From the IMG/VR virus record IMGVR_UViG_2703718839_000008: 42,613 nucleotides of DNA; one strand, 5' to 3'. The DNA is from a virus (lineage: Duplodnaviria > Heunggongvirae > Uroviricota > Caudoviricetes). Positions 6,561-42,237 of this stretch are shown one piece after another (within the stretch, counting starts at the first letter, position 1; each line of letters starts with the position of its first letter). The translations under genes were made by a program, and so were the position numbers. The notes under the pieces are model-generated. The model ran no database searches, had not been told where the DNA came from, and saw nothing but the letters and a program-made list of their open reading frames with translations.

Positions 6561-6678
6561 CACCACAACGCTAAGGATTCTCTCTGGTTGAAAATACTTA
6601 GCTGTTATGTGCCTGTCTTTTCACCACTTCAGGCTCGGTGGTATCCTTTTAAGCCCGTATACATAAAAGGAAAATCAA

Positions 6679-6924: not shown

Positions 6925-7117
6925 AAAAAGGCCATTTCCATTCAGGGTCTGATGGAAATACTTCAGCCTGTTCCAAAGCACGGCGTAAAGAGAATACAAC
7001 TCCAGCCATAATCTGATGTTTCCCATTGGTCCAGCTATCGCCGCTCTGATCTACAGGAGCGGCTATGTCGTATGACCAAACGACTTCACCACTATTGTTT
7101 AAAATCTGGACTTTCAT
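6842..7117 (-). CDS. Small hypothetical protein, 91 aa, first ORF downstream of pL (N / nun / rex-equivalent position)
   Basis: Starts about 115 nt downstream of the predicted pL start site; GGAGG upstream; overlaps the plus-strand ORF by 83 nt. Confidence 0.35.
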   Translation of the reverse strand: MKVQILNNSGEVVWSYDIAAPVDQSGDSWTNGKHQIMAGVVFSLRRALEQAEVFPSDPEWKWPFSICPNSESTFQKIGQKVALEEHQPTVS

Positions 7118-7234
7118 TTTGTTCTTTAACCTCCAGATACGGGCGTTTAATGGCCCCGCCGAACAGCTCTTTTCCGCAATAGCTGCAATGTCTTTCGCGC
7201 ATCAGCCTGCGCATTCACCACAACTCTAAAAACA

Positions 7235-7264
7235 AATGTAGGATATCCAACATGTGAGTGTCAA
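7235..7264 (-). promoter_or_regulatory. pL-like early leftward promoter
   Basis: Minus strand TTGACA (7264-7259), 18-bp spacer, TACATT (7240-7235), overlapped by an operator; mirror image of pR. Confidence 0.5.
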
Positions 7265-7288
7265 GAGTTTATGTTGGTTATCCTACAT
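7236..7288. promoter_or_regulatory. OL operator sites (two 18-bp near-palindromes)
   Basis: atgtaggatatccaacat (7236-7253) and atgttggttatcctacat (7271-7288), the same motif as at OR. Confidence 0.6.
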
Positions 7289-7301
7289 AAAAAGATAGGC
7301 T

Positions 7302-7330
7302 CATAAAAAAACCGGGGATACCCCGGTTTT
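7302..7330 (-). terminator. Rho-independent terminator downstream of the repressor gene
   Basis: accgggg-ata-ccccggt stem followed by TTTTTTT on the minus strand. Confidence 0.6.
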
Positions 7331-14700: not shown

Positions 14701-14744
14701 TTTCCCAACGATGGGCTTTGTATGTCTACCGTTGATAAGATTTA

Positions 14745-14772
14745 GGAACCCGCCACTGAGCGGGTTTTTTGT
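14745..14772 (+). terminator. tR'-like terminator about 40-65 nt downstream of PR'
   Basis: cccgc-cactga-gcggg followed by TTTTTT. Confidence 0.7.
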
Positions 14773-14892
14773 ACCTGTAAACTTGGTGCAGTACAGTAAA
14801 CACGCTGGTGGTCGTGAATACTGACTTTTTATCTTGCTGGATTTTTAGACAAGAGTTATTGGTATGTCATGTTAACCAGAAGGGAAAAAGAC

Positions 14893-15096
14893 ATGCTAAA
14901 ACAGCAAGATATGACAGAAACCGCCGCCGCAGTCCTTCATTTCTTACCTGCTGACAAGTGGGTAACGCCACGCATGATGACGAGAACTACCGGAGTAAGC
15001 GAAGCCCGGTGCCAGTTAATACTGACTCAGTTAGTTCTGGCGGGTCTGGCGAAGGATAACGGCGGGTACGGGAATAAATTCAGACGCTGCCAGTAA
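14893..15096 (+). CDS. Small putative winged-helix protein (FaeA/PapI-like architecture), about 67 aa
   Basis: ...TRTTGVSEARCQLILTQLVLAGLAKDNGG... reads as an HTH recognition helix plus wing; ORF-track start at 14869 is also possible. Confidence 0.35.
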   Translation: MLKQQDMTETAAAVLHFLPADKWVTPRMMTRTTGVSEARCQLILTQLVLAGLAKDNGGYGNKFRRCQ

Positions 15097-15246
15097 TGGC
15101 GGTTTCCTGCTGTGAAAATGGGCGGCTGGTGGGTGTTGGTAGCACCTGCCAGCCATTCGCTCATGCTTACTGGTCACAAGCGAACCACGGCCCACTGCTT
15201 TAGCGCAAAAGCAGAGTGAGCCTACCAGAGTTACGCTTACTGATCC

Positions 15247-16299
15247 ATGAAAAATACTGTAAAAATAAACAGTGTTGATTTAATCAACGCTGATTGCCTG
15301 CATTTTATTCAGTCCTTGCCTGATGATTCCATTGATCTGATTGTTACCGATCCGCCGTACTTCAAAGTGAAGCCCAACGGCTGGGACAATCAGTGGAAAG
15401 GGGACGAAGATTACCTGAAGTGGCTGGACTACTGTCTGGCCCAGTTCTGGCGGGTACTGAAACCAGCCGGAAGCCTTTACCTGTTCTGTGGACATCGCCT
15501 CGCATCTGATATCGAGATCATGATGCGTGAACGTTTCAACGTGCTTAACCATATCATCTGGGCGAAGCCGTCCGGACGATGGAACGGGTGTAATAAAGAA
15601 AGCCTGCGGGCATATTTCCCCGCTACAGAGCGCGTTCTGTTTGCTGAACATTACCAGGGGCCATATCGCGGCAAAAGTGACGGCTATGCGGCAAAAGAAA
15701 GGGAACTCAAACAGCACATAATGGCACCGCTGATATCGTATTTCAGGGATGCTCGTGCCGAACTGGGTATAACGGCAAAACAAATTGCCGAAGCCACAGG
15801 TAAGAAAAATATGGTTTCCCACTGGTTTGGTGCCAGTCAGTGGCAGTTGCCGAATGAGGCTGACTATCGGAAGTTACAGGCACTGTTTTCCCGTATAGCG
15901 GCAGAGAAGTTTCAGGAACAACAACTGGAACAACCACACCACCAGCTGGTGGCATCTTATGATTCACTGAATCGCAAATATTCTGAATTGCTGGATGAGT
16001 TTAAATCTCTCCGGCGCTATTTCTCCGTATCAGTCTCCGTGCCTTATACCGATGTCTGGACGCATAAGCCCGTTCAGTTCTACCCGGGTAAACATCCGTG
16101 CGAGAAACCGGCGGATATGCTCCGGCAAATAATCAATGCCAGTAGTCGACCTGGTGATCTGGTTGCTGATTTCTTTATGGGATCCGGTTCCACAATAAAA
16201 GCAGCAATGGCGCTGGGGCGTCGGGCGTTAGGTGTTGAACTTGAGTCAGAGCGGTTTAATCAGACGGTGAAAGAGGTAAGTGAACTGGTGGGGAAATAA
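15247..16299 (+). CDS. DNA methyltransferase (beta-class N6A/N4C type), orphan, in the late region
   Basis: N-terminal DPPY motif (LIVTDPPYF) and C-terminal FMGSGST AdoMet motif; no adjacent nuclease. Confidence 0.75.
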   Translation: MKNTVKINSVDLINADCLHFIQSLPDDSIDLIVTDPPYFKVKPNGWDNQWKGDEDYLKWLDYCLAQFWRVLKPAGSLYLFCGHRLASDIEIMMRERFNVLNHIIWAKPSGRWNGCNKESLRAYFPATERVLFAEHYQGPYRGKSDGYAAKERELKQHIMAPLISYFRDARAELGITAKQIAEATGKKNMVSHWFGASQWQLPNEADYRKLQALFSRIAAEKFQEQQLEQPHHQLVASYDSLNRKYSELLDEFKSLRRYFSVSVSVPYTDVWTHKPVQFYPGKHPCEKPADMLRQIINASSRPGDLVADFFMGSGSTIKAAMALGRRALGVELESERFNQTVKEVSELVGK

Positions 16300-16375
16300 T
16301 TCTGGTGGCCACGTTGCGTGGCCTTTTTATTTCCAACACAGCACCCGCAAATATCGCGAGGTGAGAGATGACGAA

Positions 16376-16711
16376 ATGCCTCATAACCCAAATACCTGGC
16401 CGGACTGGCTGGAGTTGTTTCAGAGCTGGTGGCGTGGAGACACACCGCTGGGTGCAGTGATTATGTCGATCGTTATGGCTGGTTTGCGCATCGCCTATTT
16501 TGGCGGTGGTGGTGGCTGGAAGCGAAAAACGCTCGAGATTTTGCTATGTGGCGCTCTGACGCTGACCTTTGCATCCGCTCTTGAATATGTCGGATGGCCT
16601 AAATCGCTTTCTGTTGCCATTGGTGGTGGCGTGGGGCTGATCGGTGTCGATGCTATTCGTGGGGCTGCAATGCGAGTAATCGGTAACAAATTTGGTAGCT
16701 CGAAGGAGTAA
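16376..16711 (+). CDS. Holin (lambda S-like family)
   Basis: Transmembrane helices with charged C-terminus; GAVIMSIVMAGLRIAYFGG resembles lambda S GIGAILAFAMAYLRG; directly upstream of endolysin. Start uncertain. Confidence 0.65.
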   Translation: MPHNPNTWPDWLELFQSWWRGDTPLGAVIMSIVMAGLRIAYFGGGGGWKRKTLEILLCGALTLTFASALEYVGWPKSLSVAIGGGVGLIGVDAIRGAAMRVIGNKFGSSKE

Positions 16712-16714
16712 TTT

Positions 16715-17191
16715 ATGCAGGCACTAAATTCCCAGCGTAAAGCTTTCCTGGATATGGTGGCATGGTCAGAAGGAACGGATAACGGGCGACAACCGACACG
16801 TAACCACGGTTATGATGTTATTGTTGGTGGCGAACTGTTCACTGATTACTCCGATCACCCTCGCAAACTTGTCACGCTAAACCCCAAACTCAAATCAACA
16901 GCTGCCGGACGTTACCAGCTTCTTTCACGCTGGTGGGATGCTTACCGTAAGCAGCTTGGCCTGAAAGACTTCTCTCCCAAAAGCCAGGACGCTGTTGCGC
17001 TGCAGCAGATTAAGGAACGTGGCGCTTTGCCGATGATTGATCGCGGTGATATCCGTCAGGCAATCGACCGTTGCAGCAATATCTGGGCTTCACTGCCGGG
17101 TGCTGGTTATGGCCAGTTCGAGCATAAGGCTGACAGCCTGATTGCAAAATTCAAAGAGGCTGGCGGAACGGTCAGAGAGATTGATGTATGA
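16715..17191 (+). CDS. R: Endolysin, lambda R-like lytic transglycosylase
   Basis: [51 protein letters not shown]... is near-identical to lambda R as recalled. Confidence 0.9.
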
Positions 17192-17625
17192 GCAGAGTAA
17201 CCGCGATTATCTCCGCTCTGGTTATCTGCATCATCGTCTGCCTGTCATGGGCGGTTAATCATTACCGTGATAACGCCATGACCTACAAAGAGCAGCGCGA
17301 TAAAGCCACATCCATCATCGCTGATATGCAGAAGCGTCAACGTGATGTAGCAGAACTCGACGCAAGATACACAAAGGAGCTTGCTGATGCTAACGCGACT
17401 ATCGAAAGTCTCCGTGCTGATGTTTCTGCTGGTCGTAAGCGCCTGCAAGTCGCCGCCACCTGTGCAAAGTCAACGACCGGAGCCAGCAGCATGGGCGATG
17501 GAGAAAGCCCAAGACTTACAGCAGATGCTGAACTCAATTATTACCGTCTCCGAAGTGGAATCGACAAGATAACCGCGCAGGTTAACTACCTGCAGGAATA
17601 CATCAGGACGCAATGCCTTCGATGA
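17188..17625 (+). CDS. Rz: Rz-like i-spanin
   Basis: N-terminus [30 protein letters not shown] matches lambda Rz; overlaps endolysin stop. Confidence 0.85.
17387..17572 (+). CDS. Rz1: Rz1-like o-spanin lipoprotein embedded in the +1 frame of Rz
   Basis: Signal peptide with lipobox LVVSAC, Pro-rich mature region; GGAG RBS. Confidence 0.75.
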
Positions 17626-17843
17626 TAGCGATAATTTTACTTATCATCCTTCACATCTGGCTCTGTAGACAGGGTGGTGATCACTTCTGGAGTGAATCCA
17701 GATTAAACATCTCATTGCTGATGCTTGAAGTTGAGCATCTGGCGCGCGGTAAGGGGCTGCGTTGAGATAAGAGCCAGTCATCACAAACACCAGGATTTAG
17801 CCTCGCATTCGCGGGGCTTTTTATTGCAACAAAGGTAAAGACG

Positions 17844-18131
17844 ATGGATGAAGAATATCGTAAAGACCTGCAATTGTGGTTTGGCCTGACGCATGCGTCG
17901 TTCTGCGTGATGCCGAGAGTATTCATGGAGGCTATGCCACAAGAATGGCAAGAGAAGATGGCGCAGTTGCTTTTTGAGTATGGCGACACGATCAAAACGG
18001 ATGTCTGCGGAGTTCACAGCTGTTTCGTTACTGCCAAAGACGGCAACAACCGCTTTATGAGGATGCCAGAAGATATTCTGAACTATCGTCATCCCCGGCG
18101 TGAGTTCATCGAATCATTTCTGAAGAAGTAG
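17844..18131 (+). CDS. Hypothetical protein, 95 aa, between lysis and packaging modules
   Basis: ORF with plausible composition; competing minus-strand ORFs look low-complexity. Confidence 0.4.
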   Translation: MDEEYRKDLQLWFGLTHASFCVMPRVFMEAMPQEWQEKMAQLLFEYGDTIKTDVCGVHSCFVTAKDGNNRFMRMPEDILNYRHPRREFIESFLKK

Positions 18132-18356
18132 CCATTACAAAGCCTATCTGCGGGTGGGCTTGATAATGAAACCGGAGCTTATTCTTGGCAACCAGTTATG
18201 GCAGTACCACGAAGCAACCCAAGCCAGTAAGTGGGGAAATAACACTGGCAGCCACTGAAAGATGAACCTCCTGCCTGATGGCAAAAAAGATTCTTTGTGG
18301 TGGCGGACTGATGGAAAGACATCCTAATCAAGCAACCACTCCACAGGGTCATAATT

Positions 18357-18713
18357 ATGAACGACCAGCAAATCGAAAAAGAAATCGTTGAGAAAGGCCA
18401 AACGGCATCGCGCGTTACGCCTCAATATATCGAAAGCATCATTCTTGAAGAGCATTTCTTTACTGCTTATGACGGCATTCGTGCTGCCAATATGGGCGTT
18501 GGCGATTCATGGACAGCGCATAAATCTACAGACCTCCTGACTTTCTGCGTACTGGTGCTGAAGAATGGCTTCACCGTCACCGGAGAGAGTGCCTGTGCAA
18601 GCCCGGAAAACTTTGATGCAGAAATTGGTCGGAAGATTGCCCGGCAAAATGCTGTAAACAAAATCTGGATGCTCGAAGGTTACTTGCTGAAGCAGAAGCT
18701 AAGCGAACAGTAG
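18357..18713 (+). CDS. Gp49-like phage protein
   Basis: ...TAHKSTDLLTFCVLVLKNGFTVTGESACASPENFDAEIGRKIARQNA... resembles the Gp49/Sf6 gp66 family commonly found upstream of terminase genes. Confidence 0.5.
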   Translation: MNDQQIEKEIVEKGQTASRVTPQYIESIILEEHFFTAYDGIRAANMGVGDSWTAHKSTDLLTFCVLVLKNGFTVTGESACASPENFDAEIGRKIARQNAVNKIWMLEGYLLKQKLSEQ

Positions 18714-18875
18714 TTATTACAAAAGCCATTCCCTACAGAGTGGCTTTGATAATGGCTTATACCCTACACGGGATAACTTAACTGATATCCCTTTTAACGG
18801 ATAAACGGAGCCAACAATGGCAGAGAATGTCGGCATTATGGCAGTGAAATTTGGATAAATCGGAGATTAGTACAT

Positions 18876-19850: not shown

Positions 19851-21584
19851 ATGAGCCGGAAATCTTACCCCAACGTAAATGCAGCCAATCAGTATGCCCG
19901 GGATGTCGTGCGCGGAAAGATTGTTGCCTGCCAGTTTGTGATTCAGGCCTGCCAGCGCCATCTTGATGACCTGATGGCGGAAAAAAGTAAGTCGTTTCGT
20001 TACCGCTTCGACAAGGACCTGGCTGAACGGGCCGCGAAATTTATTCAGCTGTTGCCGCACACCAAGGGGGAGTGGGCATTCAAACGGATGCCCATCACGC
20101 TGGAGCCGTGGCAGCTATTTGTGATCTGCTGTGCGTTTGGCTGGGTCAATAAAGGCACCCGGTTGCGCCGCTTCCGGGAGGTGTACACCGAAATCCCCCG
20201 TAAGAACGGCAAATCAGCAATCTCTGCCGGTGTTGCCCTGTATTGTTTTGCCTGTGATAACGAGTTTGGCGCGGAAGTGTATTCCGGTGCCACGACAGAG
20301 AAACAGGCGTGGGAAGTCTTTCGCCCGGCGCGACTGATGTGTAAACGCACACCCATGCTGACAGAAGCGTTCGGGATTGAGGTTAACGCCTCAAACATGA
20401 ACCGTCCGGAGGATGGCGCGCGGTTTGAACCGCTGATCGGCAACCCAGGTGATGGTTCATCACCCCACTGTGCCGTGGTTGATGAATATCACGAGCATGC
20501 CACCGATGCGCTTTATACCACAATGCTTACCGGGATGGGGGCGCGACGTCAGCCACTGATGTGGGCCATCACCACCGCCGGGTACAACATTGAGGGGCCG
20601 TGCTACGACAAACGGCGGGAAGTCATCGAGATGCTCAACGGCTCGGTGCCTAACGATGAACTGTTCGGGATCATCTATACCGTTGATGAAGGTGACGACT
20701 GGACCGACCCGCAGGTGCTGGAAAAAGCCAATCCAAATATTGGCGTGTCGGTTTATCGCGAATTTTTGTTAAGTCAGCAGCAGCGTGCGAAAAATAATGC
20801 CCGTCTGGCAAACGTCTTTAAAACAAAACACCTCAATATCTGGGTGTCGGCGCGTTCGGCGTATTTCAACCTGGTGAGCTGGCAGAGCTGCGAGGATAAA
20901 TCACTGACTCTTGAGCAGTTCGAGGGGCAGCCGTGCATTCTGGCCTTTGACCTGGCGCGTAAGCTGGATATGAACAGCATGGCGCGACTTTATACCCGCG
21001 AGATTGACGGTAAAACGCATTACTACAGTGTGGCCCCGCGTTTCTGGGTACCGTATGACACGGTGTACAGCGTCGAGAAAAATGAAGATCGCCGGACAGC
21101 CGAACGCTTTCAGAAATGGGTGGAAATGGGCGTTCTGACCGTTACCGATGGTGCAGAGGTGGATTATCGCTACATCCTCGAAGAGGCCAAAGCGGCGAAC
21201 AAAATCAGCCCGGTCAGTGAGTCACCCATCGACCCTTTTGGAGCGACCGGGCTGTCACATGACCTTGCTGATGAAGACCTGAATCCCGTTACTATCGTCC
21301 AGAACTTCGCCAATATGTCCGACCCGATGAAAGAGCTGGAGGCAGCGATTGAATCGGGACGCTTTCATCATGACGGCAATCCCATCATGACCTGGTGTAT
21401 CGGCAATGTGGTCGGCAAAAACATGCCAGGTAACGATGATTTAGTGAAGCCCGTCAAAGAGCAGGCGGAAAACAAAATCGATGGTGCAGTTGCGCTGATT
21501 ATGGCGGTTGGCAGAGCCATGCTGTACGAGAAAGAAGACACGCTGTCTGACCACATTGAGTCCTATGGGATCCGCTCGCTTTAA
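19851..21584 (+). CDS. Terminase large subunit
   Basis: 577 aa; ATPase and nuclease regions (DEYHEH, Asp-rich segments); position between TerS and portal. Confidence 0.85.
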
Positions 21585-21595
21585 CTGAGGTAATT

Positions 21596-21778
21596 ATGAT
21601 CATGCTGATTCTCGCGCCTCTGGTGGGCGTGCTGGGGGCGCTTTTGCTGGCGTATGGTGCCTGGCTGATTTATCCCCCGGCGGGGTTTGTTGTTGCCGGG
21701 GCGTTGTGCCTGTTCTGGTCGTGGCTGGTGGCGCGATATCTCGACCGTACACAGTCGTCTGTCGGCGGAGGTAAATAG
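21596..21778 (+). CDS. Small hydrophobic membrane protein, 60 aa
   Basis: GAGG RBS; two predicted transmembrane stretches. Confidence 0.4.
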
Positions 21779-23019
21779 TGTTCTTTTCGGGATTATTTCA
21801 ACGAAAAAGTGACGCACCGGTGACCACGCCAGCAGAGCTGGCGGATGCTATCGGGTTGTCCTACGACACCTATACCGGAAAGCAGATCAGCAGCCAGCGG
21901 GCCATGCGACTGACGGCGGTTTTTTCCTGTGTCAGGGTGCTGGCGGAGTCGGTCGGGATGTTGCCCTGCAATCTGTATCACCTGAACGGCAGCCTTAAAC
22001 AGAGAGCCACCGGCGAACGTCTGCATAAGCTGATCTCCACGCATCCCAATGGCTATATGACGCCGCAGGAGTTCTGGGAGCTGGTGGTCACCTGTCTGTG
22101 CCTGAGGGGAAACTTTTACGCCTACAAAGTGAAAGCATTTGGCGAAGTGGCTGAACTGCTGCCCGTCGATCCCGGCTGTGTGGTACCGAAGCTTAACAGT
22201 AGCTGGGAACCGGTCTATCAGGTCACATTCCCGGATGGCTCCGCGGATGTACTGAGCCAGGAGGATATCTGGCATGTGCGCACGCTGACGCTGGACGGAC
22301 TGGTGGGGCTGAATCCCATCGCCTATGCCCGCGAGGCAATATCGCTGGCGGCAGCGACCGAAGAGCACGGGGCCAGACTGTTCAGCAATGGCGCGGTGAC
22401 GTCGGGTGTGTTGCGTACAGAGCAGACGCTGTCGGATCAGGCTTATGAGCGCCTGAAGAAAGATTTTGAGGAGCGTCACACCGGGCTTGGCAATGCTCAC
22501 CGCCCGATGATCCTTGAGATGGGGCTGGACTGGAAGTCGATGGCGCTGAACGCCGAGGACAGCCAGTTCCTGGAAACCCGCAAGTTTCAGCTTGAAGAAA
22601 TCTGTCGTCTGTTCCGTGTGCCATTGCACATGGTGCAGAACACCGATCGCGCCACCTTCAACAATATCGAAGAGCTGGGGCTGGGATTTATCAACTATTC
22701 ACTGGTGCCGTATCTGACCCGCATTGAGCAGCGGATCAACACCGGACTGGTACGAAAAAGTAAGCAGGGCGTTTATTACGCCAAATTTAACGCCGGGGCG
22801 TTACTGCGCGGGGATATGAAGTCCCGTTTTGAAGCCTACGCCACCGGGATCAACTGGGGAATTTACTCTCCCAATGACTGCCGCGACCTGGAAGATATGA
22901 ATCCGCGTCCCGGTGGTGATGTCTATCTCACACCGATGAACATGACCACGAAGCCCTCCGATGGCAGTAAAGCCGGTAAGCAGAAGGATAACGCCAATGC
23001 AGACGAAACAACGTCTTGA
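21778..23019 (+). CDS. Portal protein (HK97-like)
   Basis: 413 aa after TerL; GTG start overlapping upstream stop. Confidence 0.8.
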   Translation: MFFSGLFQRKSDAPVTTPAELADAIGLSYDTYTGKQISSQRAMRLTAVFSCVRVLAESVGMLPCNLYHLNGSLKQRATGERLHKLISTHPNGYMTPQEFWELVVTCLCLRGNFYAYKVKAFGEVAELLPVDPGCVVPKLNSSWEPVYQVTFPDGSADVLSQEDIWHVRTLTLDGLVGLNPIAYAREAISLAAATEEHGARLFSNGAVTSGVLRTEQTLSDQAYERLKKDFEERHTGLGNAHRPMILEMGLDWKSMALNAEDSQFLETRKFQLEEICRLFRVPLHMVQNTDRATFNNIEELGLGFINYSLVPYLTRIEQRINTGLVRKSKQGVYYAKFNAGALLRGDMKSRFEAYATGINWGIYSPNDCRDLEDMNPRPGGDVYLTPMNMTTKPSDGSKAGKQKDNANADETTS

Positions 23020-23647
23020 TGTACCGCTGAGTCTGAAATCTGTCAGTGACTCCGGTGAGTTTGAAGGGTATGGCTCCGTCTTTGGTGTAAAGGACAGCCA
23101 CGATGATGTGGTGATGTCCGGGGCATTTGCTGCTTCCCTGCGGGCGTGGAGTGACAGAAAAGCGTTACCTGCGCTGCTCTGGCAGCACCGCATGGATGAA
23201 CCCATCGGTGTTTACACCGAAATGAAGGAAGACGATGTCGGGCTTTACGTCAGGGGACGGTTGCTTATTGATGATGATCCCCTCGCAAAACGCGCACATG
23301 CACACATGAAGGCCGGTTCGTTAACCGGCCTTTCTATTGGGTACGTCCTGAAAGACTGGGAATACGACCGGAGCAAAGAAGCCTTTCTGCTGAAAGAAAT
23401 CGACCTCTGGGAAGTCAGCCTGGTGACGTTCCCGTCTAACGACGAGGCGCGGATCAGCGACGTCAAGAACGCACTGGCCCGCGGGGAAATCCCCGAACAG
23501 AAAAAAATCGAAAGAGTCCTGCGTGATGTCGGACTCTCCCGTACCCAGGCCAAAGCATTCATGACCGGGGGCTATGGCGCACTGTCCCTGCGCGACGCTG
23601 AGGATGTGGGCTCTGCACTGAATGCACTGAAAAATCTGAACTTCTAA
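22997..23647 (+). CDS. Prohead protease (HK97 family)
   Basis: Between portal and capsid genes; AGGA RBS before MQTKQ. Confidence 0.75.
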   Translation: MQTKQRLDVPLSLKSVSDSGEFEGYGSVFGVKDSHDDVVMSGAFAASLRAWSDRKALPALLWQHRMDEPIGVYTEMKEDDVGLYVRGRLLIDDDPLAKRAHAHMKAGSLTGLSIGYVLKDWEYDRSKEAFLLKEIDLWEVSLVTFPSNDEARISDVKNALARGEIPEQKKIERVLRDVGLSRTQAKAFMTGGYGALSLRDAEDVGSALNALKNLNF

Positions 23648-23661
23648 TCAGGAGAAATACG

Positions 23662-24867
23662 ATGGCGGTTGATATTAAAGATGTCGAACAGGTCGCGCAG
23701 GAGCTGCAGCAGAAGTTTGACGACTTCAAAGCAAAGAACGACAAGCGCGTGGATGCGATTGAGCAGGAAAAAGGCAAGCTTGCCGGGCAGGTGGAAACCC
23801 TGAACGGAAAACTCAGCGAGCTGGAAAACCTCAAAAGCGATCTTGAAAAAGAGCTGCTTGAGCTGAAACGTCCGGCAGGTGGTGCGCAAAATAAACTGAC
23901 CACCGAGCATAAAGAAGCGTTTGTGGGCTTCCTGCGTAAAGGCCGTGAAGATGGTCTGCGCGATCTGGAGCGCAAGGCATTACAGGTGGGCACCGATGAA
24001 GACGGCGGCTATGCCGTGCCGGAAGAACTGGATCGCAACATTCTTAACCTGCTGAAAGATGAAGTGGTGATGCGTCAGGAAGCCACGGTGATCACCATTG
24101 GTGGTTCCGACTACAAAAAACTGGTGAATCTGGGCGGCACGGCTTCCGGATGGGTTGGCGAGACTGACGCGCGCTCCCAGACTGCCACCTCAAAACTGGG
24201 CCTGATTGAACCTTTCATGGGGGAAATCTACGGTAACCCGCAGGCCACCCAGAAAATGCTGGATGATGCCTTTTTCAACGTGGAAGCATGGATCAACAGC
24301 GAGCTGGCAACCGAATTTGCCGAACAGGAAGAAATTGCCTTTACCTCAGGCGATGGCACCAAGAAGCCGAAAGGGTTCCTGGCGTATGAATCCACTGATG
24401 AAACCGATAAGGTCCGGGCGTTCGGCAAACTTCAGCATATTGTATCCGGCGAAGCGACGGCGGTGACCGCAGACGCCATTATCAAACTGATTTACACGCT
24501 GCGTAAGGCACACCGCACTGGCGCGAAGTTCATGATGAACAACAACAGCCTGTTTGCCATCCGTCTGCTGAAAGACAGCGAGGGTAACTATCTGTGGCGT
24601 CCGGGGCTGGAGCTGGGGCAGCCGTCCTCTCTGGCGGGTTACGGTATCGCTGAAAACGAACAGATGCCGGATATCGCCGCTGATGCGAAAGCCATTGCAT
24701 TTGGTAACTTCAAACGGGGTTACACCATCGTTGACCGTATCGGCACCCGCATTCTGCGTGACCCGTACACCAATAAACCGTTTGTCGGTTTTTATACCAC
24801 CAAGCGCACCGGCGGGATGCTGGTCGATTCGCAGGCCATCAAACTGCTGAAGATTGCAGCGGCGTAA
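23662..24867 (+). CDS. Major capsid protein (HK97 fold) with N-terminal coiled-coil delta domain
   Basis: 401 aa; N-terminal charged heptad-like region then capsid body; strong RBS. Confidence 0.85.
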   Translation: MAVDIKDVEQVAQELQQKFDDFKAKNDKRVDAIEQEKGKLAGQVETLNGKLSELENLKSDLEKELLELKRPAGGAQNKLTTEHKEAFVGFLRKGREDGLRDLERKALQVGTDEDGGYAVPEELDRNILNLLKDEVVMRQEATVITIGGSDYKKLVNLGGTASGWVGETDARSQTATSKLGLIEPFMGEIYGNPQATQKMLDDAFFNVEAWINSELATEFAEQEEIAFTSGDGTKKPKGFLAYESTDETDKVRAFGKLQHIVSGEATAVTADAIIKLIYTLRKAHRTGAKFMMNNNSLFAIRLLKDSEGNYLWRPGLELGQPSSLAGYGIAENEQMPDIAADAKAIAFGNFKRGYTIVDRIGTRILRDPYTNKPFVGFYTTKRTGGMLVDSQAIKLLKIAAA

Positions 24868-24873
24868 TCACTC

Positions 24874-24901
24874 AGGGGCGCGGAACCGCGCCCCCTGTTC
24901 T
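24874..24901 (+). terminator. GC hairpin (attenuator/terminator) after the capsid gene
   Basis: ggggcgcgg-aa-ccgcgcccc stem followed by a T-rich tail. Confidence 0.45.
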
Positions 24902-24916
24902 GACGGGTGAAGAATC

Positions 24917-25117
24917 ATGATCCTGAAACAAGATCTGAAATGGTCACCGGACGGTATGCGTGTTGAGGTCATTCGGGCCGGTGAGTATGACGACGGGGCA
25001 CTTCCTGCCCGGGTGCAGGAGATTGCACTTCAGGCCGGGTTAGCAGAGCGCGGAATCAGTGCAAAAAGCAGTAAAGCGGCAAAAGAGAAAAAAGCCACGA
25101 CCAGTAAAGAGGGCTGA
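24917..25117 (+). CDS. Small hypothetical head-module protein, 66 aa
   Basis: ORF between capsid and connector genes. Confidence 0.4.
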   Translation: MILKQDLKWSPDGMRVEVIRAGEYDDGALPARVQEIALQAGLAERGISAKSSKAAKEKKATTSKEG

Positions 25118-25119
25118 GT

Positions 25120-25443
25120 ATGCTTCTGACAATGGAAGAGATTAAAGCCCAACTCCGGCTGGATGAGGATTTCGATGCTGATGACCGCCATCTGCAACTG
25201 CTGGCCTGTGCGGCACAAAAGCGGACGGAAACGTATCTGAACCGGAAGCTCTATGCACCGGATGAAACCATTCCGGACAGCGACCCGGACGGGCTACACC
25301 TGCCGGATGATATTCGTCTGGGGATGCTGATGCTTATCAGCCATTTTTACGAAAACCGCTCGTCGGTTACAGACGTTGAGAAAATGGAGTTGCCAATGAG
25401 TTTTAACTGGTTGGTTGTTCCTTATCGCCTTATACCACTATGA
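25120..25443 (+). CDS. Head-tail connector protein (gp6-like)
   Basis: MLLTMEEIKAQLRLDEDFDADD... typical gp6-like N-terminus. Confidence 0.65.
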   Translation: MLLTMEEIKAQLRLDEDFDADDRHLQLLACAAQKRTETYLNRKLYAPDETIPDSDPDGLHLPDDIRLGMLMLISHFYENRSSVTDVEKMELPMSFNWLVVPYRLIPL

Positions 25444-35205: not shown

Positions 35206-36250
35206 ATTTCAGCGCCCGACGCTGGCAGAAAATATCAGTATGCTCCGTAACGATTTATTCGCCAGGCTGGACGTCAGCGACACGCTCCGGCGCATGGATG
35301 AAGACGTGCGGGCAAAGGTGTATGCGGCGGCGCTGCATACGGTTTACGGTTACATCGATTATCTGGCAATGAACATGCTGCCTGATCTGTGCGATGAGTC
35401 CTGGCTGGCGCGACATGCTGCGATGAAACGGTGTCCGCGCAAGGGGGCCACGGCTGCCAGCGGGTATATGCGCTGGGAAGGTGTCAGCGATGGCCTGAAG
35501 GTGACCGCCGGGAGTGTTATTCAGCGCGATGACCTGGTTCAGTACACGGCAACTGCCGATGCAATCAGCACTGGTGGTGTCCTGCGTGTGCCGATCACTT
35601 GCTCAACTACAGGCGCGGTCGGTAACGCTGACGACGGTACGGCATTAATCCTGGTCACGCCGGTGAATGGTCTGCCGTCTTCCGGTGTGGCTGACACCCT
35701 GACAGGCGGATTTGATACTGAAGAGCTGGAAACGTGGCGCGCCCGCGTCATTGAGCGGTATTACTGGACGCCTCAGGGCGGGGCTGACGGGGACTATGTC
35801 GTCTGGGCTAAAGAAGTGCCCGGCATTACCCGCGCATGGACATACCGACACTGGATGGGAACGGGGACTGTCGGTGTGATGATTGCCAGCAGTGACCTGA
35901 TTAATCCCATTCCGGAAGAGTCAACGGAAACGGCGGCAAGACAACATATCGAGCCACTGGCCCCGGTGGCAGGCTCTGATTTGTATGTATTCAGGCCGGT
36001 GGCGCATAAAGTGGATTTTCATATCCGCGTGACGCCGGACACACCGGAAATACGGGCTGCCATCACCGCCGAGTTGCGTTCGTTCCTGCTGCGTGATGGT
36101 TATCCGCAGGGAGAACTGAAGGTGTCACGTATCAGTGAAGCGATTTCCGGTGCGAACGGGGAATACAGCCATCAGTTGCTTGCCCCGGCGGACAATATCT
36201 CCATTGCAAAAAATGAGCTGGCGGTTCTGGGGACGATTTCATGGACGTGA
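35192..36250 (+). CDS. Baseplate J-like protein (Mu gp47-like)
   Basis: 352 aa in conserved order. Confidence 0.65.
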
Positions 36251-36825
36251 CAAACGATGATTATATCCGTCTGTTGTCGGCACTGTTGCCGCCCGGTCCG
36301 GCGTGGTCAGTCAGCGATCCGGCGATTGCCGGTGCGGCACCGTCATTAACCCGCGTTCATCAGCGTGCGGATGCCCTGATGCGGGAGCTGGATCCGCGCA
36401 CCACCACTGAACTGATAAACCGCTGGGAGCGTCTGTGCGGTCTGCCGGATGAATGTATTCCCGCAGGGACACAGACCCTTCGCCAGCGTCAGCAACGGCT
36501 GGATGCGAAGGTTAATCTGGCGGGCGGCATCAATGAGGATTTTTATCTTGCACAGCTTGCTGCCCTGGGCAGACCAGACGCCACTATCACGCGATACGAT
36601 AAAAGCACGTTCACCTGCTCATCGGCCTGTACTGACGCAGTGAATGCGCCGGAATGGCGGTATTACTGGCAGGTCAACATGCCAGCCGCCACCAACACCA
36701 CCTGGATGACATGTGGCGCTCCCTGTGATTCCGCACTGCGTATCTGGGGCGACACCGTTGTCGAGTGCGTGCTTAACAAACTCTGCCCTTCGCATACCTA
36801 CGTAATTTTTAAATATCCGGAGTAA
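36241..36825 (+). CDS. YmfQ/DUF2313-like tail protein (Mu gp48-like)
   Basis: 194 aa immediately upstream of the tail fibre gene, as in e14 ymfQ. Confidence 0.6.
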
Positions 36826-36828
36826 TCC

Positions 36829-37467
36829 ATGCATCGTATAGACACGAAAACCGCGCAGAAGGATAAGTTCGGCGCGGGTAAGAACGGTTTTACCCGTGGT
36901 AACCCCCAGACCGGCACACCTGCCACCGATCTGGATGATGACTACTTTGACATGTTGCAGGAGGAGCTTTGCAGCGTTGTGGAGGCATCCGGTGCCAGCC
37001 TGGAGAAGGGGCGGCACGACCAGCTGCTTACCGCGCTTCGTGCGCTGCTGTTAAGCCGCAAGAATCCGTTTGGTGATATCAAATCGGATGGCACGGTGAA
37101 AACGGCTCTCGAAAACCTTGGTTTGGGGGAATTGGCTCTGGCTGGCGCAACAACCGGCGCTATGTTGGTGAATGGGTATGTAGCAATTCCATTAATTATT
37201 TCTGGCGTTCGGAGACCACTTATTATCCAGTGGGGAGTGGGGCAGTTTGGGGGAAGTCTGGGGGATGATGCGGGATATTTAAACAATTTCCCTTTCGCTT
37301 TTCCGTCGGCGTGCTACGTGATGGTTGCCAGCCACGTGGGGCATACACCTTCGGGTGCCGGAATACTATCTGCTTCCGCAATCACAAAAAGCGGCTTTCG
37401 TGGTTTTTCCAGCGTAGCGACTGCCGCAAATCCTGTATCGGGCTGTTATGTTGCTATAGGAGGGTGA
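36829..37467 (+). CDS. Tail fibre protein: constant N-terminal part fused to variable C-terminal part in current orientation
   Basis: N-terminus [55 protein letters not shown] matches e14/Mu-type fibre N-termini; recombination site falls within codons ENLGLGE. Confidence 0.8.
37108..37130. repeat. Left inverted-repeat recombination site (gix/pix-like) of the invertible fibre segment
   Basis: ctcgaaaaccttggtttgggggaa is the near-inverse of 38912-38934; resembles Gin/Hin site core. Confidence 0.6.
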
Positions 37468-37468
37468 T

Positions 37469-37903
37469 GTGTTTTTTAGTCCATCTTTAAATATTTTTGT
37501 GAATCCTGCGCTTAAGGATGACTACATCAATGAAAATTCATGGCCAGATGATGCTGTTGAAGTTGATGAGCAGGTGTATATTGAGTTTTCCGGATTACCG
37601 CCGAAAGGAAAAATCCGTATCGCTGGGGAAAATGGTTTTCCTGCATGGTCTGAAATTCCACCACCAACGCATGAGGAACAGATTGCCGCAGCCGAATTGA
37701 AAAAACAGCAATTGATTAATCAGTCCAACGAATATATGAATACCAAGCAATGGCCTGGTAAAGCGGCTATTGGTCGTCTGAAAGGTGAGGAACTGGCGCA
37801 ATATAATTTGTGGCTGGATTATCTGGACGCACTGGAACTGGTTGATACCTCCAGTGCTCCAGATATTGAATGGCCTACGCCTCCGGCAGTTCAGGCCAGA
37901 TGA
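37469..37903 (+). CDS. Tail fibre assembly protein
   Basis: GTG start after GGAGGG; C-terminal ...LDYLDALELVDTSSAPDIEWP typical of Tfa chaperones. Confidence 0.7.
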   Translation: MFFSPSLNIFVNPALKDDYINENSWPDDAVEVDEQVYIEFSGLPPKGKIRIAGENGFPAWSEIPPPTHEEQIAAAELKKQQLINQSNEYMNTKQWPGKAAIGRLKGEELAQYNLWLDYLDALELVDTSSAPDIEWPTPPAVQAR

Positions 37904-38468
37904 CATCCGGCGCGGTGCTCGTATCTGTTGCCGTCGCCGCGTCAATGTAATCAAGCACGGCGTTAAGCCGGGTGGTTTCTGCCTGCGTCAGCTTCCGCCC
38001 GGCCTGTAATTTCAGCTGAATCAGACTGATGGAAGCCATTGCAGCATCAATCAGTGACTGGCGCTGTGCTTCTGCCGCTTCTACTGCGGCACCGTGTTGT
38101 GCCTCAGTATCTGTCACCCATTTCTCACCATCCCATTTATCATATGGCGTTAACGGTGAAAGCGTGACATAACCGTTTTTGATGGCACCGATATAATCCA
38201 CTGTAACAGCAGCACCATTTTCGATTGAGTAAACAGTCTCATTGCGATGGTCTTCTTCATGGCTCCATCCCTTACCTGTAAATACTGCCACTCTTCCCGG
38301 AATGTTTTCGCCAGGGTCAATACCAGTGGAACAGGCGGGCATACTTACGCCAGTATTAATATATTCATCAGACCAGCCCGTATACTCAGATGTTTCAGCA
38401 TCATAATAAAAACAACGCATATCGCCCGGCACTGTAGCCAGCCCATTTTCATCAAAAACAGGTTTCAT
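37875..38468 (-). CDS. Alternative tail fibre assembly protein, opposite orientation
   Basis: Convergent with and overlapping the plus-strand Tfa gene; C-terminal ...LDYIDAATATDTSTAPDVIWP motif. Confidence 0.7.
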   Translation of the reverse strand: MKPVFDENGLATVPGDMRCFYYDAETSEYTGWSDEYINTGVSMPACSTGIDPGENIPGRVAVFTGKGWSHEEDHRNETVYSIENGAAVTVDYIGAIKNGYVTLSPLTPYDKWDGEKWVTDTEAQHGAAVEAAEAQRQSLIDAAMASISLIQLKLQAGRKLTQAETTRLNAVLDYIDAATATDTSTAPDVIWPELPEA

Positions 38469-38925
38469 TATTTAGCCCTCACCAGAAAGTTAAATGCAAT
38501 ATTTCGCGGTCTGACAGCAACAAAATTCACACCATCACCCACAGAGTTACTGGTGAAATTAAATCGTGAAAATCCTGGCTGATTTCCGGCGATGCCATCA
38601 TGAAAGTTAATTGCGTGTCCCGCACCTCCGCCTATATTCCCGGCAAACTGAGAAAAGTTTGTAGCTTCCTGCCAGCTTAATAATTCGCGACCACCATCGG
38701 CACCTCGCCCGTCATCCCAGATACGAATGAAATCACCGCGGGCTTCAGGTAATACCAGTGAAGGAAACACTTTCGCCAGCACAGGGTAATCAGAGGCAGA
38801 AAATTTCGCCCCGTTGAACTTCAAAAACACCATACTGGACCAGCTGTCGATTACAGTATTTGGCATTGCAGCGGACGGCCAGAAGAACGGAACGCCAATA
38901 GCTGGAGCACCTTCTCCCAAACCAA
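38468..38925 (-). CDS. Alternative variable tail-fibre C-terminal segment, start-less, expressed only after inversion
   Basis: Reads from the right recombination site as LGLGEGAPAIG..., joining in frame to ...ENLGLGE; no own start codon. Confidence 0.65.
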
Positions 38926-38934
38926 CCTTTCAAA
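38912..38934. repeat. Right inverted-repeat recombination site of the invertible segment
   Basis: ttctcccaaaccaacctttcaaa; reverse complement matches the left site with few mismatches. Confidence 0.6.
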
Positions 38935-38996
38935 TATTTTTCTGAATCAGGTGATATTTCGCCTCTTCTCCTGTTTTTACAACAGGAGAAGCACTC

Positions 38997-39560
38997 ATGA
39001 TTTACGGGTATGTTCGTGTATCAACAAATCATCAGGATACAGAGTTGCAACGTCTTGCACTTGAGTCAGCTGGCTGTGAGCGAATTTATGAAGAATATGC
39101 CAGTGGCAGAACAGCTAATCGCCCTGTGTTAAAGGAATTAATTACGGTGATGAAAAGTGGAGATGAGTTGATTGTCTGGAAGTTAGATCGGATAGGGAGA
39201 AATGTGCTGCATGCGCTATTGATGTTTCAAAATCTGCACGAAAAAGGTGTTAATTTTCGGAGTATTACAGATGGCGTAGACCTGAAAACAGCAAGTGGTC
39301 GCTATAATTTCCGTAATATTCTTTCTGCTGCGCAGTATGAATCTGATTTGAATAGCGAGCGAACTTTAGCTGGTTTGGCTATTGCCAGATCCAAAGGCCG
39401 GATTGGTGGGCGTAGACCGAAGTTTAGCGACGAGCAGTGGCAACAGATGGGAGCGATCATAGCGGCAGGGAAATCACGGCGTTATGTTGCACGTATCTAT
39501 AACGTTGGGCTATCAACCCTATATAAACGATTTCCTGTTACTGGCATTCAAACGAAATAA
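38997..39560 (+). CDS. pin: Serine DNA invertase (Pin/Gin/Hin family)
   Basis: MIYGYVRVSTNHQDTELQ... catalytic Ser, resolvase domain and C-terminal HTH; adjacent to the invertible segment; AGGAGA RBS. Confidence 0.85.
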   Translation: MIYGYVRVSTNHQDTELQRLALESAGCERIYEEYASGRTANRPVLKELITVMKSGDELIVWKLDRIGRNVLHALLMFQNLHEKGVNFRSITDGVDLKTASGRYNFRNILSAAQYESDLNSERTLAGLAIARSKGRIGGRRPKFSDEQWQQMGAIIAAGKSRRYVARIYNVGLSTLYKRFPVTGIQTK

Positions 39561-39703
39561 TTTAAAAGCAATTTAAAGAGTTATTTGTCTAATGTTGGAA
39601 GCCGCAGCCACGTCGTATGCAAGAACGTGCTGCGGCTGGCTGGCGAACTTTCGATAGTGCGAGTATTGAATGATTTCCAGCCGTTACCGATTTTACGTGT
39701 TAA

Positions 39704-39952
39704 TTAGTGAACAAACCACTCGTCAGCAGATTCCCAGGTATCTTTCAGAGTCTCCTGAACAAAAGTTTTTGCAGAATCCTTATCTGCGGTGCGTGTAACA
39801 GAAAGGCCATCGTTGCTGGTGGCTTTTACGATCACCTCTACATCGTCATAACGTTTACTGATGCGTCGGGTTAATTCTTCCTTTAACGCATCCACAGCAC
39901 CGGTTGGCATTTTAGTCATTTTTTCTTTGGCTATGCAGATTTCAATACGCAT
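39704..39952 (-). CDS. DinI-like protein
   Basis: [11 protein letters not shown]...LKEELTRRI...[16 protein letters not shown] matches the DinI-family pattern; two LexA boxes upstream. Confidence 0.7.
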
Positions 39953-39965
39953 AAAAGTCCCTCTA

Positions 39966-39985
39966 TACTGTGTTTGTATACAGTA
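39966..39985. promoter_or_regulatory. LexA (SOS) box 1
   Basis: TACTGTGTTTGTATACAGTA, a perfect CTGT-N8-ACAG palindrome. Confidence 0.75.
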
Positions 39986-39993
39986 TTATTTTT

Positions 39994-40013
39994 AACTGTA
40001 TAGATAAACAGTG
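39994..40013. promoter_or_regulatory. LexA (SOS) box 2
   Basis: AACTGTATAGATAAACAGTG, CTGT-N8-ACAG. Confidence 0.7.
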
Positions 40014-41111
40014 TCAAGAGGCCTTATTTCTGCTCCTTTGGAGCTCTTCAAAACGATTATGTAAAGATTTCGGATACAGTTCGGTATATACCTGCCATAG
40101 CACGTTTAATGAACGATGCCCTGTAACCTGGGCGACTTCCTCAATACTAAAACCAGCCTCAAATAAGCGACTTGCCCCTTCTCTACGCAAATCATGGTAT
40201 CGCAGATCTTTAATACCTAATTTGCTTCTTACCCTCTGGAATCCCGCAGTAACAGAAGTGCTGTTATATGGAAAAATGAATTCTGATTTTTTGGGTTGTC
40301 GTTGGACGATATCCCAGGCTTCCCCAAGCAAGGCTACTTTCATATGGTTGCCTTCCTTTTTACGTGGATCTTTCCTGTCTCTTACGAGTATGGATTTTTG
40401 TTCCTGATCGAGATCCTCCCATCGTAATCGGCATACTTCACCGATTCGCATACATGACCACACAGAAAATTTGAGGATATCAACGAACGGAATTTTTGAG
40501 CATTTATGTGTAGATCGTTGTTGAAGACCTTCAATGAGCATGTCCAGTTCATCAGATGCCGGTCTACGATTACGACGATTTGATTTACCAATTAAACCAA
40601 GTTTAAGTAGATATGGACGAGCGGCTTTTGCTGGGTTTGATGTGTAATTAATTCCATATACAGGTTTGGCAGCATCCAGAACACTGCCAAGATAACTAAC
40701 ATCGTGGCTAACTGTAGCTGGACCTGCACCAGCGTTGTTTCTTAGCCTGCAATGTTCAATTACGTCATTTTCTGTCAGTTCAGATAGTTTGAGCGCGGAG
40801 ACGTCACTATCCATAAGCAGTTCCAGCACATATCTTTTAGTACGGCCTGCTTTACCTCCGGCATTTGGGTCATTTAAATATTTGTGTAGTAAGTCACGGA
40901 CTGTAAGTCCGTCAACTGCATTTGATGATGGAATGCCATATAGATCTAATTCCATCACTTTCTGTGTGCCCCATGTTTTGGCATGAGCATGTTTAGGGAA
41001 TGTTTTACTTTCCCTGTAAGTGATAACACCTTTTTCTTTGATAATCACATTACAGCGATAGCGTGGTGTGCCATCGGATTTTAGTCGTTTCTCTATGTTA
41101 TAGTATGCCAT
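40014..41111 (-). CDS. int: Tyrosine integrase (dusA-targeting type)
   Basis: 365 aa with C-terminal tyrosine recombinase catalytic region (R..H..R..Y); adjacent to attR within dusA. Confidence 0.85.
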   Translation of the reverse strand: MAYYNIEKRLKSDGTPRYRCNVIIKEKGVITYRESKTFPKHAHAKTWGTQKVMELDLYGIPSSNAVDGLTVRDLLHKYLNDPNAGGKAGRTKRYVLELLMDSDVSALKLSELTENDVIEHCRLRNNAGAGPATVSHDVSYLGSVLDAAKPVYGINYTSNPAKAARPYLLKLGLIGKSNRRNRRPASDELDMLIEGLQQRSTHKCSKIPFVDILKFSVWSCMRIGEVCRLRWEDLDQEQKSILVRDRKDPRKKEGNHMKVALLGEAWDIVQRQPKKSEFIFPYNSTSVTAGFQRVRSKLGIKDLRYHDLRREGASRLFEAGFSIEEVAQVTGHRSLNVLWQVYTELYPKSLHNRFEELQRSRNKAS

Positions 41112-41199
41112 TACACGACCTCGTTATTTCGGGTTCCCATAAAACGTGGGAACCTGTGCGGGAACCTAACGCGAGAAAAATAGCCTGAAATGTTCAAAA

Positions 41200-42237
41200 A
41201 TGCACGATAATCATGAAACACAAAAAATTAATCAAACCAGCGTGATGCCTGAAAAAACTGGTGTTTACTGGAATTCTCGGTTTAGCATTGCTCCTATGCT
41301 CGACTGGACGGACAGACATTGCCGCTATTTCTTGCGTCTGCTTTCCCGCAATACGTTGCTGTATACCGAAATGGTGACCACAGGGGCGATTATTCACGGT
41401 AAAGGTGATTATCTGGCGTACAGTGAAGAAGAACATCCGGTAGCGTTGCAACTGGGCGGTAGCGATCCGGCGGCGCTGGCGCAGTGTGCAAAGCTGGCAG
41501 AAGCGCGCGGATATGATGAGATCAACCTGAATGTCGGCTGCCCGTCTGACCGGGTGCAGAACGGCATGTTTGGTGCGTGTCTGATGGGTAATGCGCAGCT
41601 GGTTGCCGACTGCGTGAAAGCGATGCGCGATGTGGTGTCGATTCCGGTGACGGTGAAAACGCGTATTGGCATCGACGACCAGGACAGCTATGAATTTCTC
41701 TGCGATTTCATCAATACCGTTTCCGGCAAAGGCGAGTGTGAGATGTTCATCATCCACGCACGTAAAGCCTGGCTTTCGGGGTTAAGCCCGAAAGAAAACC
41801 GTGAAATCCCGCCGCTCGATTATCCGCGTGTGTATCAACTGAAGCGTGACTTTCCGCATCTGACAATGTCGATTAACGGTGGTATCAAGTCGCTGGAAGA
41901 GGCCAAAGCACACCTGCAACATATGGATGGCGTGATGGTCGGGCGCGAGGCGTATCAGAATCCGGGTATTCTGGCGGCGGTAGACCGGGAGATCTTTGGT
42001 TCCTCGGATACCGATGCCGATCCGGTGGCGGTAGTGCGCGCCATGTATCCGTACATTGAGCGTGAACTCAGCCAGGGGACGTATCTCGGCCATATTACCC
42101 GGCATATGTTGGGCTTGTTCCAGGGTATTCCTGGCGCGCGGCAGTGGCGGCGTTATTTAAGTGAAAATGCCCATAAAGCGGGTGCAGACATTAATGTGCT
42201 GGAACACGCGCTCAAACTGGTGGCGGATAAGCGTTAA
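41200..42237 (+). CDS. dusA: tRNA-dihydrouridine synthase A, intact, with phage-supplied 5' end
   Basis: 345 aa; [63 protein letters not shown]... Dus-family TIM barrel. Confidence 0.9.
41296..41304. other. attR core within the reconstituted dusA 5' end
   Basis: atgctcgac shared with the left junction; upstream differs at several codons from the displaced host 5' end. Confidence 0.55.

Follow-up and report, generated by a model that had tools for sequence, protein, structure and literature searches.

When a phage tail-fibre gene is followed by a second, mirror-image fibre end and a recombinase gene, does the ensemble form a working inversion switch, and is it the neighbouring enzyme that throws it? 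We addressed these questions for positions 36829-39560 of a stretch of 42,613 nucleotides (42.6 kb; IMG/VR record IMGVR_UViG_2703718839_000008, Caudoviricetes), which as a whole is referred to here as the window. The locus is very probably a Din-type (Hin/Gin/Cin/Pin) inversion switch, homologous to the P segment of the Escherichia coli element e14, that gives the fibre one or other of two receptor-binding tips, each served by a chaperone of its own. This answer is directly supported by the anatomy of the locus, the identity of its crossover sites, the in-frame fusion that inversion produces, the intact catalytic motifs of the invertase and natural genomes in which the segment lies either way round. 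Textbooks have covered invertible fibre segments since Mu G, P1 C and e14 P, and the fibre switch adds nothing new in principle, near-identical copies being present in public E. coli genomes and in Escherichia phage SKA5. Its practical side is that the fibre of a therapeutic or induced phage depends on the orientation. What sets the locus apart is its invertase, whose sequence suggests a regulatory interface unlike the Hin/Gin paradigm.

Two fibre ends and the sites that exchange them

The tail-fibre gene (36829-37467, plus strand; 212 residues) joins a tail-fibre N-terminus to a gp53-like C-terminal domain. Its constant 5' part (Sc; 36829-37119, plus strand; residues 1-97) is common to both orientations, is covered by PHROG tail-fibre N-terminus matches over residues 1-107 and shares 96% DNA identity with e14 stfP as far as 37131. 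The variable C-terminus that faces Sc at present (SvA; 37120-37467, plus strand) is gp53-like (Pfam Gp53-like_C, 4.4e-12, residues 131-211) and is followed on the same strand by the gene for TfaA, the 144-residue assembly chaperone for SvA (37469-37903; Pfam Caudo_TAP, 6.3e-36; PHROG tail fiber assembly, 6.9e-62). Mirrored on the minus strand are the gene for TfaB, the 197-residue assembly chaperone for SvB (37875-38468; Caudo_TAP, 2.4e-26; PHROG, 3.9e-83; 63.5% amino-acid identity to e14 TfaE), which converges on the TfaA gene with a 29-bp overlap, and SvB itself (38468-38923), a start-less alternative fibre C-terminus of the tail-collar type (PHROG tail fibre / tail collar matches, 9e-53) that is silent as now oriented. 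The SvB reading frame spans 38468-38926 on the minus strand, lacks an ATG and is closed just beyond the repeat by a TGA at 38930-38932. The array is completed by a 187-residue serine DNA invertase of the phi80 PinL clade (38997-39560, plus strand; Pfam Resolvase, 3.4e-36, and HTH_7, 1.3e-10). A first-pass annotation made from the letters of the window alone had described this layout as a constant fibre N-terminus followed by a variable C-terminus and a Tfa gene on the plus strand, a second start-less variable segment encoded with its Tfa as a mirror image, and the gene of a serine invertase behind them; the positions of all five open reading frames and the Pfam and PHROG matches bear it out.

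Inversion in silico of 37120-38923, the 1,804 bp exchanged between the two crossover cores, joins Sc to SvB in frame through the sequence ...ENLGLGE-GAPAIGVPFF... and yields a 248-residue fibre followed directly by the 197-residue chaperone gene. The fusion had been foreseen at first pass as ENLGLGE to EGAPAIGVPFF, a trivial double count of the one shared glutamate in an otherwise correct junction.

The junction lies at two 26-bp crossover sites. The left, pixL-like site (37106-37131) reads CTCTCGAAAACC TT GGTTTGGGGGAA, with its core at 37118-37119, and the right, pixR-like site (38912-38937) reads TTCTCCCAAACC AA CCTTTCAAATAT, with its core at 38924-38925 and a degenerate outer half. As the cores are TT and AA on the plus strand, the sites are inverted relative to each other, as inversion requires. 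Both have the half-site / 2-bp core / half-site layout (AAACC-NN-GGTTT) of gix and cix, the sites compared being Mu gix (TTATCCAAAACC TC GGTTTACAGGAA) and P7 cixL (CAATCCTAAACC TT GGTTTAAGAGAA). The left site differs from e14 pixL at one base; the right site is identical to e14 pixR in its inner half, differs from it in the degenerate outer half, and is identical throughout to the site 5' of pinL in phi80 and mEp237. Alignment to family sites, which had been proposed together with the first description of the repeats, thus returned a pix match along with the layout shared by gix and cix.

That description, of near-identical 23-bp inverted repeats, stands in so far as the repeat is real and exceeds chance, but the well-matched part is shorter. 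The best-matched inverted repeat is 14 bp long, TTGGTTTGGG(G/A)GAA, at 37118-37131 on the plus strand and 38912-38925 on the minus strand, with 13 of its 14 bases alike; the window holds exactly two matches to it, where shuffling predicts 0.05, and none of 100 shuffled sequences had two. The outer halves agree poorly (4/10). A poorly matching outer half-site is usual in this family, as in hixR and e14 pixR. A scan of the whole window for Din half-sites returned these two sites and no others, and a third cassette or site was accordingly set aside as a candidate.

The invertase has what catalysis and site recognition demand of the family. Its best solved relative is Gin (2e-56), and it aligns end to end with structures 3UJ3 and 4M6F. 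It retains R7, S9 and the D64-R65-x-x-R68 motif, together with F87 and F105, which correspond to Hin F88 and to the essential Hin F106; all of these are conserved in 119 relatives. The GGRRPK arm (residues 137-142) and the VGLSTLYKRFP recognition helix (170-180) can be aligned with Gin and with the Hin DNA-binding domain (1HCR), and GRRPK and STLYKRFP are kept across the 119 clade members. The first-pass annotation had named loss of the catalytic serine as a sign that would speak against a functional switch; Ser9 is in place.

From this anatomy a mechanism can be proposed. The late operon would read through the 97 codons of Sc into whichever cassette faces it, at present SvA and TfaA. Dimers of the 187-residue invertase would bind both 26-bp sites and cut at the TT and AA cores, and the DNA between the cores would be exchanged by subunit rotation, after which Sc would be fused in frame to SvB, a tail-collar-type tip, with TfaB next. 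Since either cassette can be fused to Sc by flipping, a lysogen population would release virions with two alternative receptor-binding tips, a form of host-range bet-hedging.

Opposite orientations in E. coli genomes

Both orientations occur across strains, with breakpoints inside the two sites. Among complete E. coli genomes, 38 contain the flipped fibre fusion in one piece, one of them at 100% identity, and 24 contain the window's own fusion. E. coli E423 carries the same dusA prophage: its flanks, as far as 37131 on one side and starting at 38911 on the other, match the window at 99.9% identity, its interior aligns to the opposite strand, and its 748-nt flipped fibre gene is 100% identical. 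In GPEC1222 the SvA-TfaA cassette of the window is inverted and adjoins the invertase; there the alignments pass from one strand to the other precisely at 37118 and 38912-38925 and overlap on the 14-bp repeat. The invertase of E423 and GPEC1222 is that of the window except for one residue. The aligned genomes are evidence that the lineage flips at these two sites; flipping of the window's own copy does not follow from them.

Annotation pipelines mangle such loci, which is of practical concern. In RefSeq the flipped 248-residue fibre is named 'integrase' in several genomes (6001-6747 of locus L001), and elsewhere the two halves of the fibre appear as pseudogenes labelled 'missing C-terminus' or 'missing N-terminus' (4589-5227 and 6227-6685 of locus L002).

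That the window's own enzyme is the flipper of this copy, and how fast it works, we infer, and a number of points weigh against a switch that throws itself and changes host range. The evidence for two orientations comes from assembled genomes of different strains, and the flipped relatives are not isogenic with the window: a search for an isogenic flipped genome found none, the best flipped relatives each having one cassette in common with the window, at 95-96% identity, and differing in the other. Other Pin enzymes are common in E. coli strains and flip pix sites in trans (PMC12529663), so the natural flips cannot be credited to the window's invertase. The window allele carries a private L154I (codon 39456-39458) relative to E423, GPEC1222 and SKA5, and at the equivalent position in Hin, whose leucine contacts Fis, L155V lowers Fis-activated inversion about 10-fold (PMC3798978). 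A scan for the 15-mer Fis consensus KNNYRNNWNNYRNNM in pairs 48 bp apart found none in the invertase gene or anywhere in 36801-39700, although Fis sites are degenerate and an enhancer is not excluded by this result. Different receptors for the two tips, and hence host-range switching, would follow by analogy.

Several of these points could be drawn together by supposing a genuine Din-type segment that its own enzyme no longer flips, so that the SvA fibre alone would be made unless the Pin of another prophage acts in trans, as documented for PinQ, PinR and PinE on e14 (PMC12529663). L154I and the missing Fis-site pair fit such a frozen copy, as does a helix-B basic patch reduced to K46, with E47 and T50 beside it, and the lineage offers a precedent: in Z1323CEC0012, the closest same-orientation relative, the invertase (6756-7319 of locus L002) carries R65W within the catalytic D-R-x-x-R motif and a tfa gene is frameshifted, from which it follows that the switch decays in some hosts. 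The window's copy, however, has all its catalytic residues and DNA-binding motifs, both cassettes and both chaperones are intact reading frames, leucine to isoleucine is a conservative change at a position where the clade has L, R and M, and the near-identical enzyme is found in prophages of both orientations. We therefore consider a frozen copy unlikely, and a frozen or trans-driven copy would in any case leave the identity of the element unchanged. Much less probable still is a role in host defence such as e14 has in K-12, where inversion is reported to yield proteins, derived from the fibre, that sit on outer-membrane receptors and so keep other phages from adsorbing; there, PinQ-driven inversion makes the chimera StfE2, which blocks T2 adsorption (PMC12529663), and Sc and the pix sites of the window are nearly as in e14. 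Yet e14 is a defective remnant, whereas the window prophage is complete and collinear with SKA5, a gene set that makes virion host range the natural function. StfE2, moreover, starts at stfE's own ATG outside pixR, whereas the SvB frame has no ATG and is stopped by the TGA, so that no StfE2 equivalent is encoded, and the variable parts are unlike those of e14 (SvB is 43% identical to StfE and SvA has diverged). As for a static duplication or rearrangement that happens to lie near an unrelated resolvase gene, an arm complementarity of 74% over 31 nt, together with the 4/10 agreement of the outer halves, could be cited for a chance repeat. The chance expectation for the 14-bp repeat, the match to the Din consensus and to e14 pixL and pixR, the in-frame fusion and the loss of collinearity exactly at the sites in natural genomes reduce that explanation to a negligible one, and a degenerate outer half is normal, as e14 pixR illustrates. 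An inversion switch of the e14 P type remains the explanation that we adopt.

The PinL-type invertase and its control

The enzyme had been called Pin-type, a designation that is right in placing it among the Pin-family serine invertases and imprecise beyond that. It shares 49-55% identity with PinE, Gin and Cin (54-55% with PinE, 49-52% with Gin and Cin), which among themselves share 75-82%, and 61-80% with proteins of the PinL clade, reaching about 79-80% with phi80 PinL, HK225 and mEp237 and 99.5%, a single residue apart, with the SKA5 enzyme. At about 54% to PinE and with no canonical Fis-enhancer signature, it is better described as PinL-type. The clade comprises more than 100 protein clusters at 90% identity from Escherichia, Citrobacter, Salmonella, Klebsiella, Enterobacter and Serratia. 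An invertase of this type, known in phi80 only as an orphan, here stands beside a complete substrate. The literature mentions phi80 pinL incidentally, and a limited search, which does not prove absence, found no paper testing a PinL-clade enzyme. The mEpX1 invertase (3501-4049 of locus L010) is a natural chimera, its first ~60 residues being of the classical Gin/Pin kind and its helix E and DNA-binding domain PinL-type.

The positions through which Hin is regulated are altered in this enzyme. Activation of Hin by the Fis-bound enhancer needs R154 and L155 of the DNA-binding domain and the helix-B basic patch K47, R48 and K51 (PMC3798978), which correspond to A153/I154 and K46/E47/T50 in the window's invertase. 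Hin F105 and M109 lock the inactive dimer, F105N inverts faster and is partly Fis-independent in vivo, and H107Y is Fis-independent (PMC4513852); F105, H107 and M109 are replaced by N104, R106 and I108. The helix-E sequence that contains these replacements, RYNFRNILSAxQY, is invariant in all 119 PinL-clade representatives, against RFFFHVMGALxEM in PinE, Gin and Cin. Across the clade, position 153 (R/A/E/K) and position 154 (L/R/M) vary, whereas the three classical enzymes compared have R-L.

For the enhancer signal the genes themselves were compared. One Fis-consensus pair, at gene nucleotides 23 and 71, is present in each of pinE, gin, cin and the chimeric mEpX1 gene, and it coincides with the annotated enhancer of P7 cin; four other PinL-clade genes scanned likewise held no such pair. 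In a profile of the invertase gene aimed at any embedded cis element, synonymous-site variation dips in the three classical genes over codons 1-16 (0.19-0.28, against 0.5-0.8 elsewhere), whereas the PinL clade, represented by few sequences, has a weak dip (0.41-0.45, against about 0.5-0.7). Given the altered regulatory residues and the lack of a canonical Fis enhancer in the scan, the PinL-type enzyme probably differs from Hin and Gin in its mode of activation, a view that the degeneracy of Fis sites and the small number of sequences behind the synonymous-site profile keep at the level of a hypothesis.

We go one step further only tentatively, and with more doubt than confidence: the PinL clade may be a distinct, widespread enterobacterial subfamily of Din-type enzymes that acts on ordinary pix/gix-like sites and is not gated by a canonical Fis enhancer in its own gene, being either enhancer-independent or dependent on another accessory site or factor. 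The features that may carry this proposal are the helix-E motif, with its natural equivalent of Hin F105N, the unconserved Fis-contact residues, the reduced helix-B patch and the absence of the Fis pair. Were the invertase to work without a Fis enhancer, nature would have supplied an equivalent of the hyperactive laboratory mutants and a compact candidate tool for DNA inversion.

Under the same proposal the main brake on flipping might lie in the leader of the gene. A hairpin with an 11-bp stem (38965-38991, plus strand; -15.4 kcal/mol, z -5.7; none of 200 shuffled sequences folds as well) ends 6 nt 5' of the invertase ATG and holds the Shine-Dalgarno sequence AGGAG in its 3' arm. It is conserved in SKA5, in phi80, where it is annotated as IR3, and in mEp237, and e14 and Mu have a short version. 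By covering the ribosome-binding site it probably damps translation of the invertase and keeps its level low. A promoter and terminator scan of 36500-40100 gave no more sites than shuffled sequences did, with none 5' of the invertase; a promoter read by hand, TTCAAA-N18-GATATT, overlaps the right site, scores 8/12 and is not claimed.

Prophage context and comparison with known systems

The fibre gene is preceded by Mu-like baseplate genes, identified by domain searches as Baseplate_J and gp48/YmfQ. The YmfQ / Mu gp48-like baseplate wedge gene (36241-36825, plus strand; Pfam Phage_Mu_Gp48, 3.6e-26; PHROG baseplate wedge, 1.6e-84; 97% amino-acid identity to e14 YmfQ) lies directly 5' of it and forms the end of the baseplate operon. 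Downstream of the invertase the same searches identified a DinI-like gene, a tyrosine integrase and dusA. NCBIfam offered no specific family for the fibre, Tfa or YmfQ proteins and just sub-threshold matches to unrelated serine recombinase equivalogs for the invertase.

Where did the segment come from? The first-pass annotation had recognised the architecture of Mu G and e14 P, with which the sites, the fusion, the domains, the synteny with e14 and the natural flipped copies all agree, and had supposed it to be grafted onto this phage. The second idea does not survive comparison. From the baseplate J gene through ymfQ and Sc, the DNA is 96% identical to e14, a match that ends at the outer edge of the left site (37131), and SfV-like Shigella phages have the same baseplate and constant fibre part, which makes the segment native to the lineage. 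Homology to phi80 starts exactly at the right site (38911) and takes in the site, the spacer, the hairpin and the invertase gene, while the variable cassettes that the sites enclose change from one strain to the next. With e14 homology stopping at one site and phi80 homology starting at the other, the crossover sites are mosaic joints for module exchange, and the exchanged part looks to be the invertase module from the right site onward, of the phi80 pinL-dinL type and not pinE.

The surrounding prophage is integrated in E. coli dusA and is an intact-looking myovirus of the SfV/e14/SKA5-like kind, with a complete set of head, tail, lysis and regulation genes collinear with SKA5. Both ends are marked by a degenerate direct repeat of the dusA 5' end (107 bp, 83% identical; 1068-1174 and 41197-41303), so the window holds the whole prophage, of about 40 kb. 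The integrase gene (40014-41111, minus strand) adjoins a phage-borne replacement of the dusA 5' end, with the displaced original fragment at the far end; integration at a tRNA gene was discarded as an alternative, as the prophage lies in dusA and the window contains no tRNA. Directly upstream of the DinI-like gene (39704-39952, minus strand), in the gap that separates it from the end of the integrase gene, are two perfect LexA boxes (CTGT-N8-ACAG; 39968-39983 and 39996-40011), which give it the look of an SOS-controlled moron. The space between the invertase and DinI genes, which converge, holds a strong imperfect hairpin without a T-run (39600-39643; -30.8 kcal/mol over 39585-39660, z -2.8) that may stop transcription in both directions or stabilise RNA. 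Ordinary module mosaicism accounts for the stretches that have no SKA5 counterpart (14734-18875, 21507-25332 and 4973-6275); among their contents are a DNA methylase (15247-16299), a holin and Rz lysis set unlike that of SKA5 (16280-17625), a portal/protease/capsid block that likewise differs and, on the minus strand, a DUF2303 gene (4989-5813).

Among known systems, the e14 P segment of K-12 has the same gene order and orientations (ymfQ-stfP-tfaP-tfaE-stfE-pinE), a similar length between repeats (1,797 bp, against 1,780 bp in the window) and, in StfP, the same ENLGLGE junction, the crossover falling within the fibre frame so as to swap the C-terminal receptor-binding part. Its inversion has been demonstrated by read mapping and PCR (PMC4272514) and by quantitative PCR, with PinE, PinQ and PinR all acting on the e14 sites (PMC12529663); the latter study also refers to earlier reports of PinE inverting the H segment of Salmonella and the G segment of Mu. 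The window differs from e14 in its enzyme, 54-55% identical to PinE with no close PinE orthologue at the locus, and in its tips: SvB is 43% identical to StfE, TfaA 58% to TfaP and TfaB 63.5% to TfaE, SvA has diverged, and SvB lacks the start codon that stfE has. It differs also in setting, e14 being a remnant at icd with mcrA downstream, and the window a complete prophage at dusA with dinI in that place.

Mu G/Gin and P1-P7 C/Cin follow the same logic of a constant Sc, an Sv/U pair with its mirror Sv'/U', and an invertase just outside one site, and the gp44 to gp48-like baseplate genes of Mu are present in the window too. In contrast to the window's gene, gin and cin carry the Fis-site pair, and the window's fibres, at 212 or 248 residues, are far shorter than those of Mu and P1-P7. 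A shufflon, which relies on the Rci tyrosine recombinase and multiple sfx sites, was rejected as a model, the window having a serine-type enzyme and two sites.

The pinL-dinL region of phi80, found also in HK225 and mEp237, shares the right site, the spacer and the leader hairpin (IR3) sequence with the window, and phi80 likewise has a DinI-family neighbour gene with predicted LexA sites. In phi80, mEp237 and mEpX1, however, the orphan invertase lies next to fibre (pseudogene) fragments and has no more than one site, so that there is nothing to invert, whereas the window has a complete two-cassette segment between two sites. The closest deposited phage record is that of SKA5 (OR670062), which aligns with about 70% of the window at 92-98% identity. 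It has the same dusA-type integrase and a dusA fragment, and its invertible segment, its enzyme (annotated there as a DNA invertase) and its DinI gene are arranged as in the window; other variants stand in for SvA and for part of SvB, and the head and lysis modules are partly different. In SKA5 and in Citrobacter phage Omnitron, whose two sites are 1,876 bp apart, a PinL-type invertase adjoins a complete substrate, as it does in the window.

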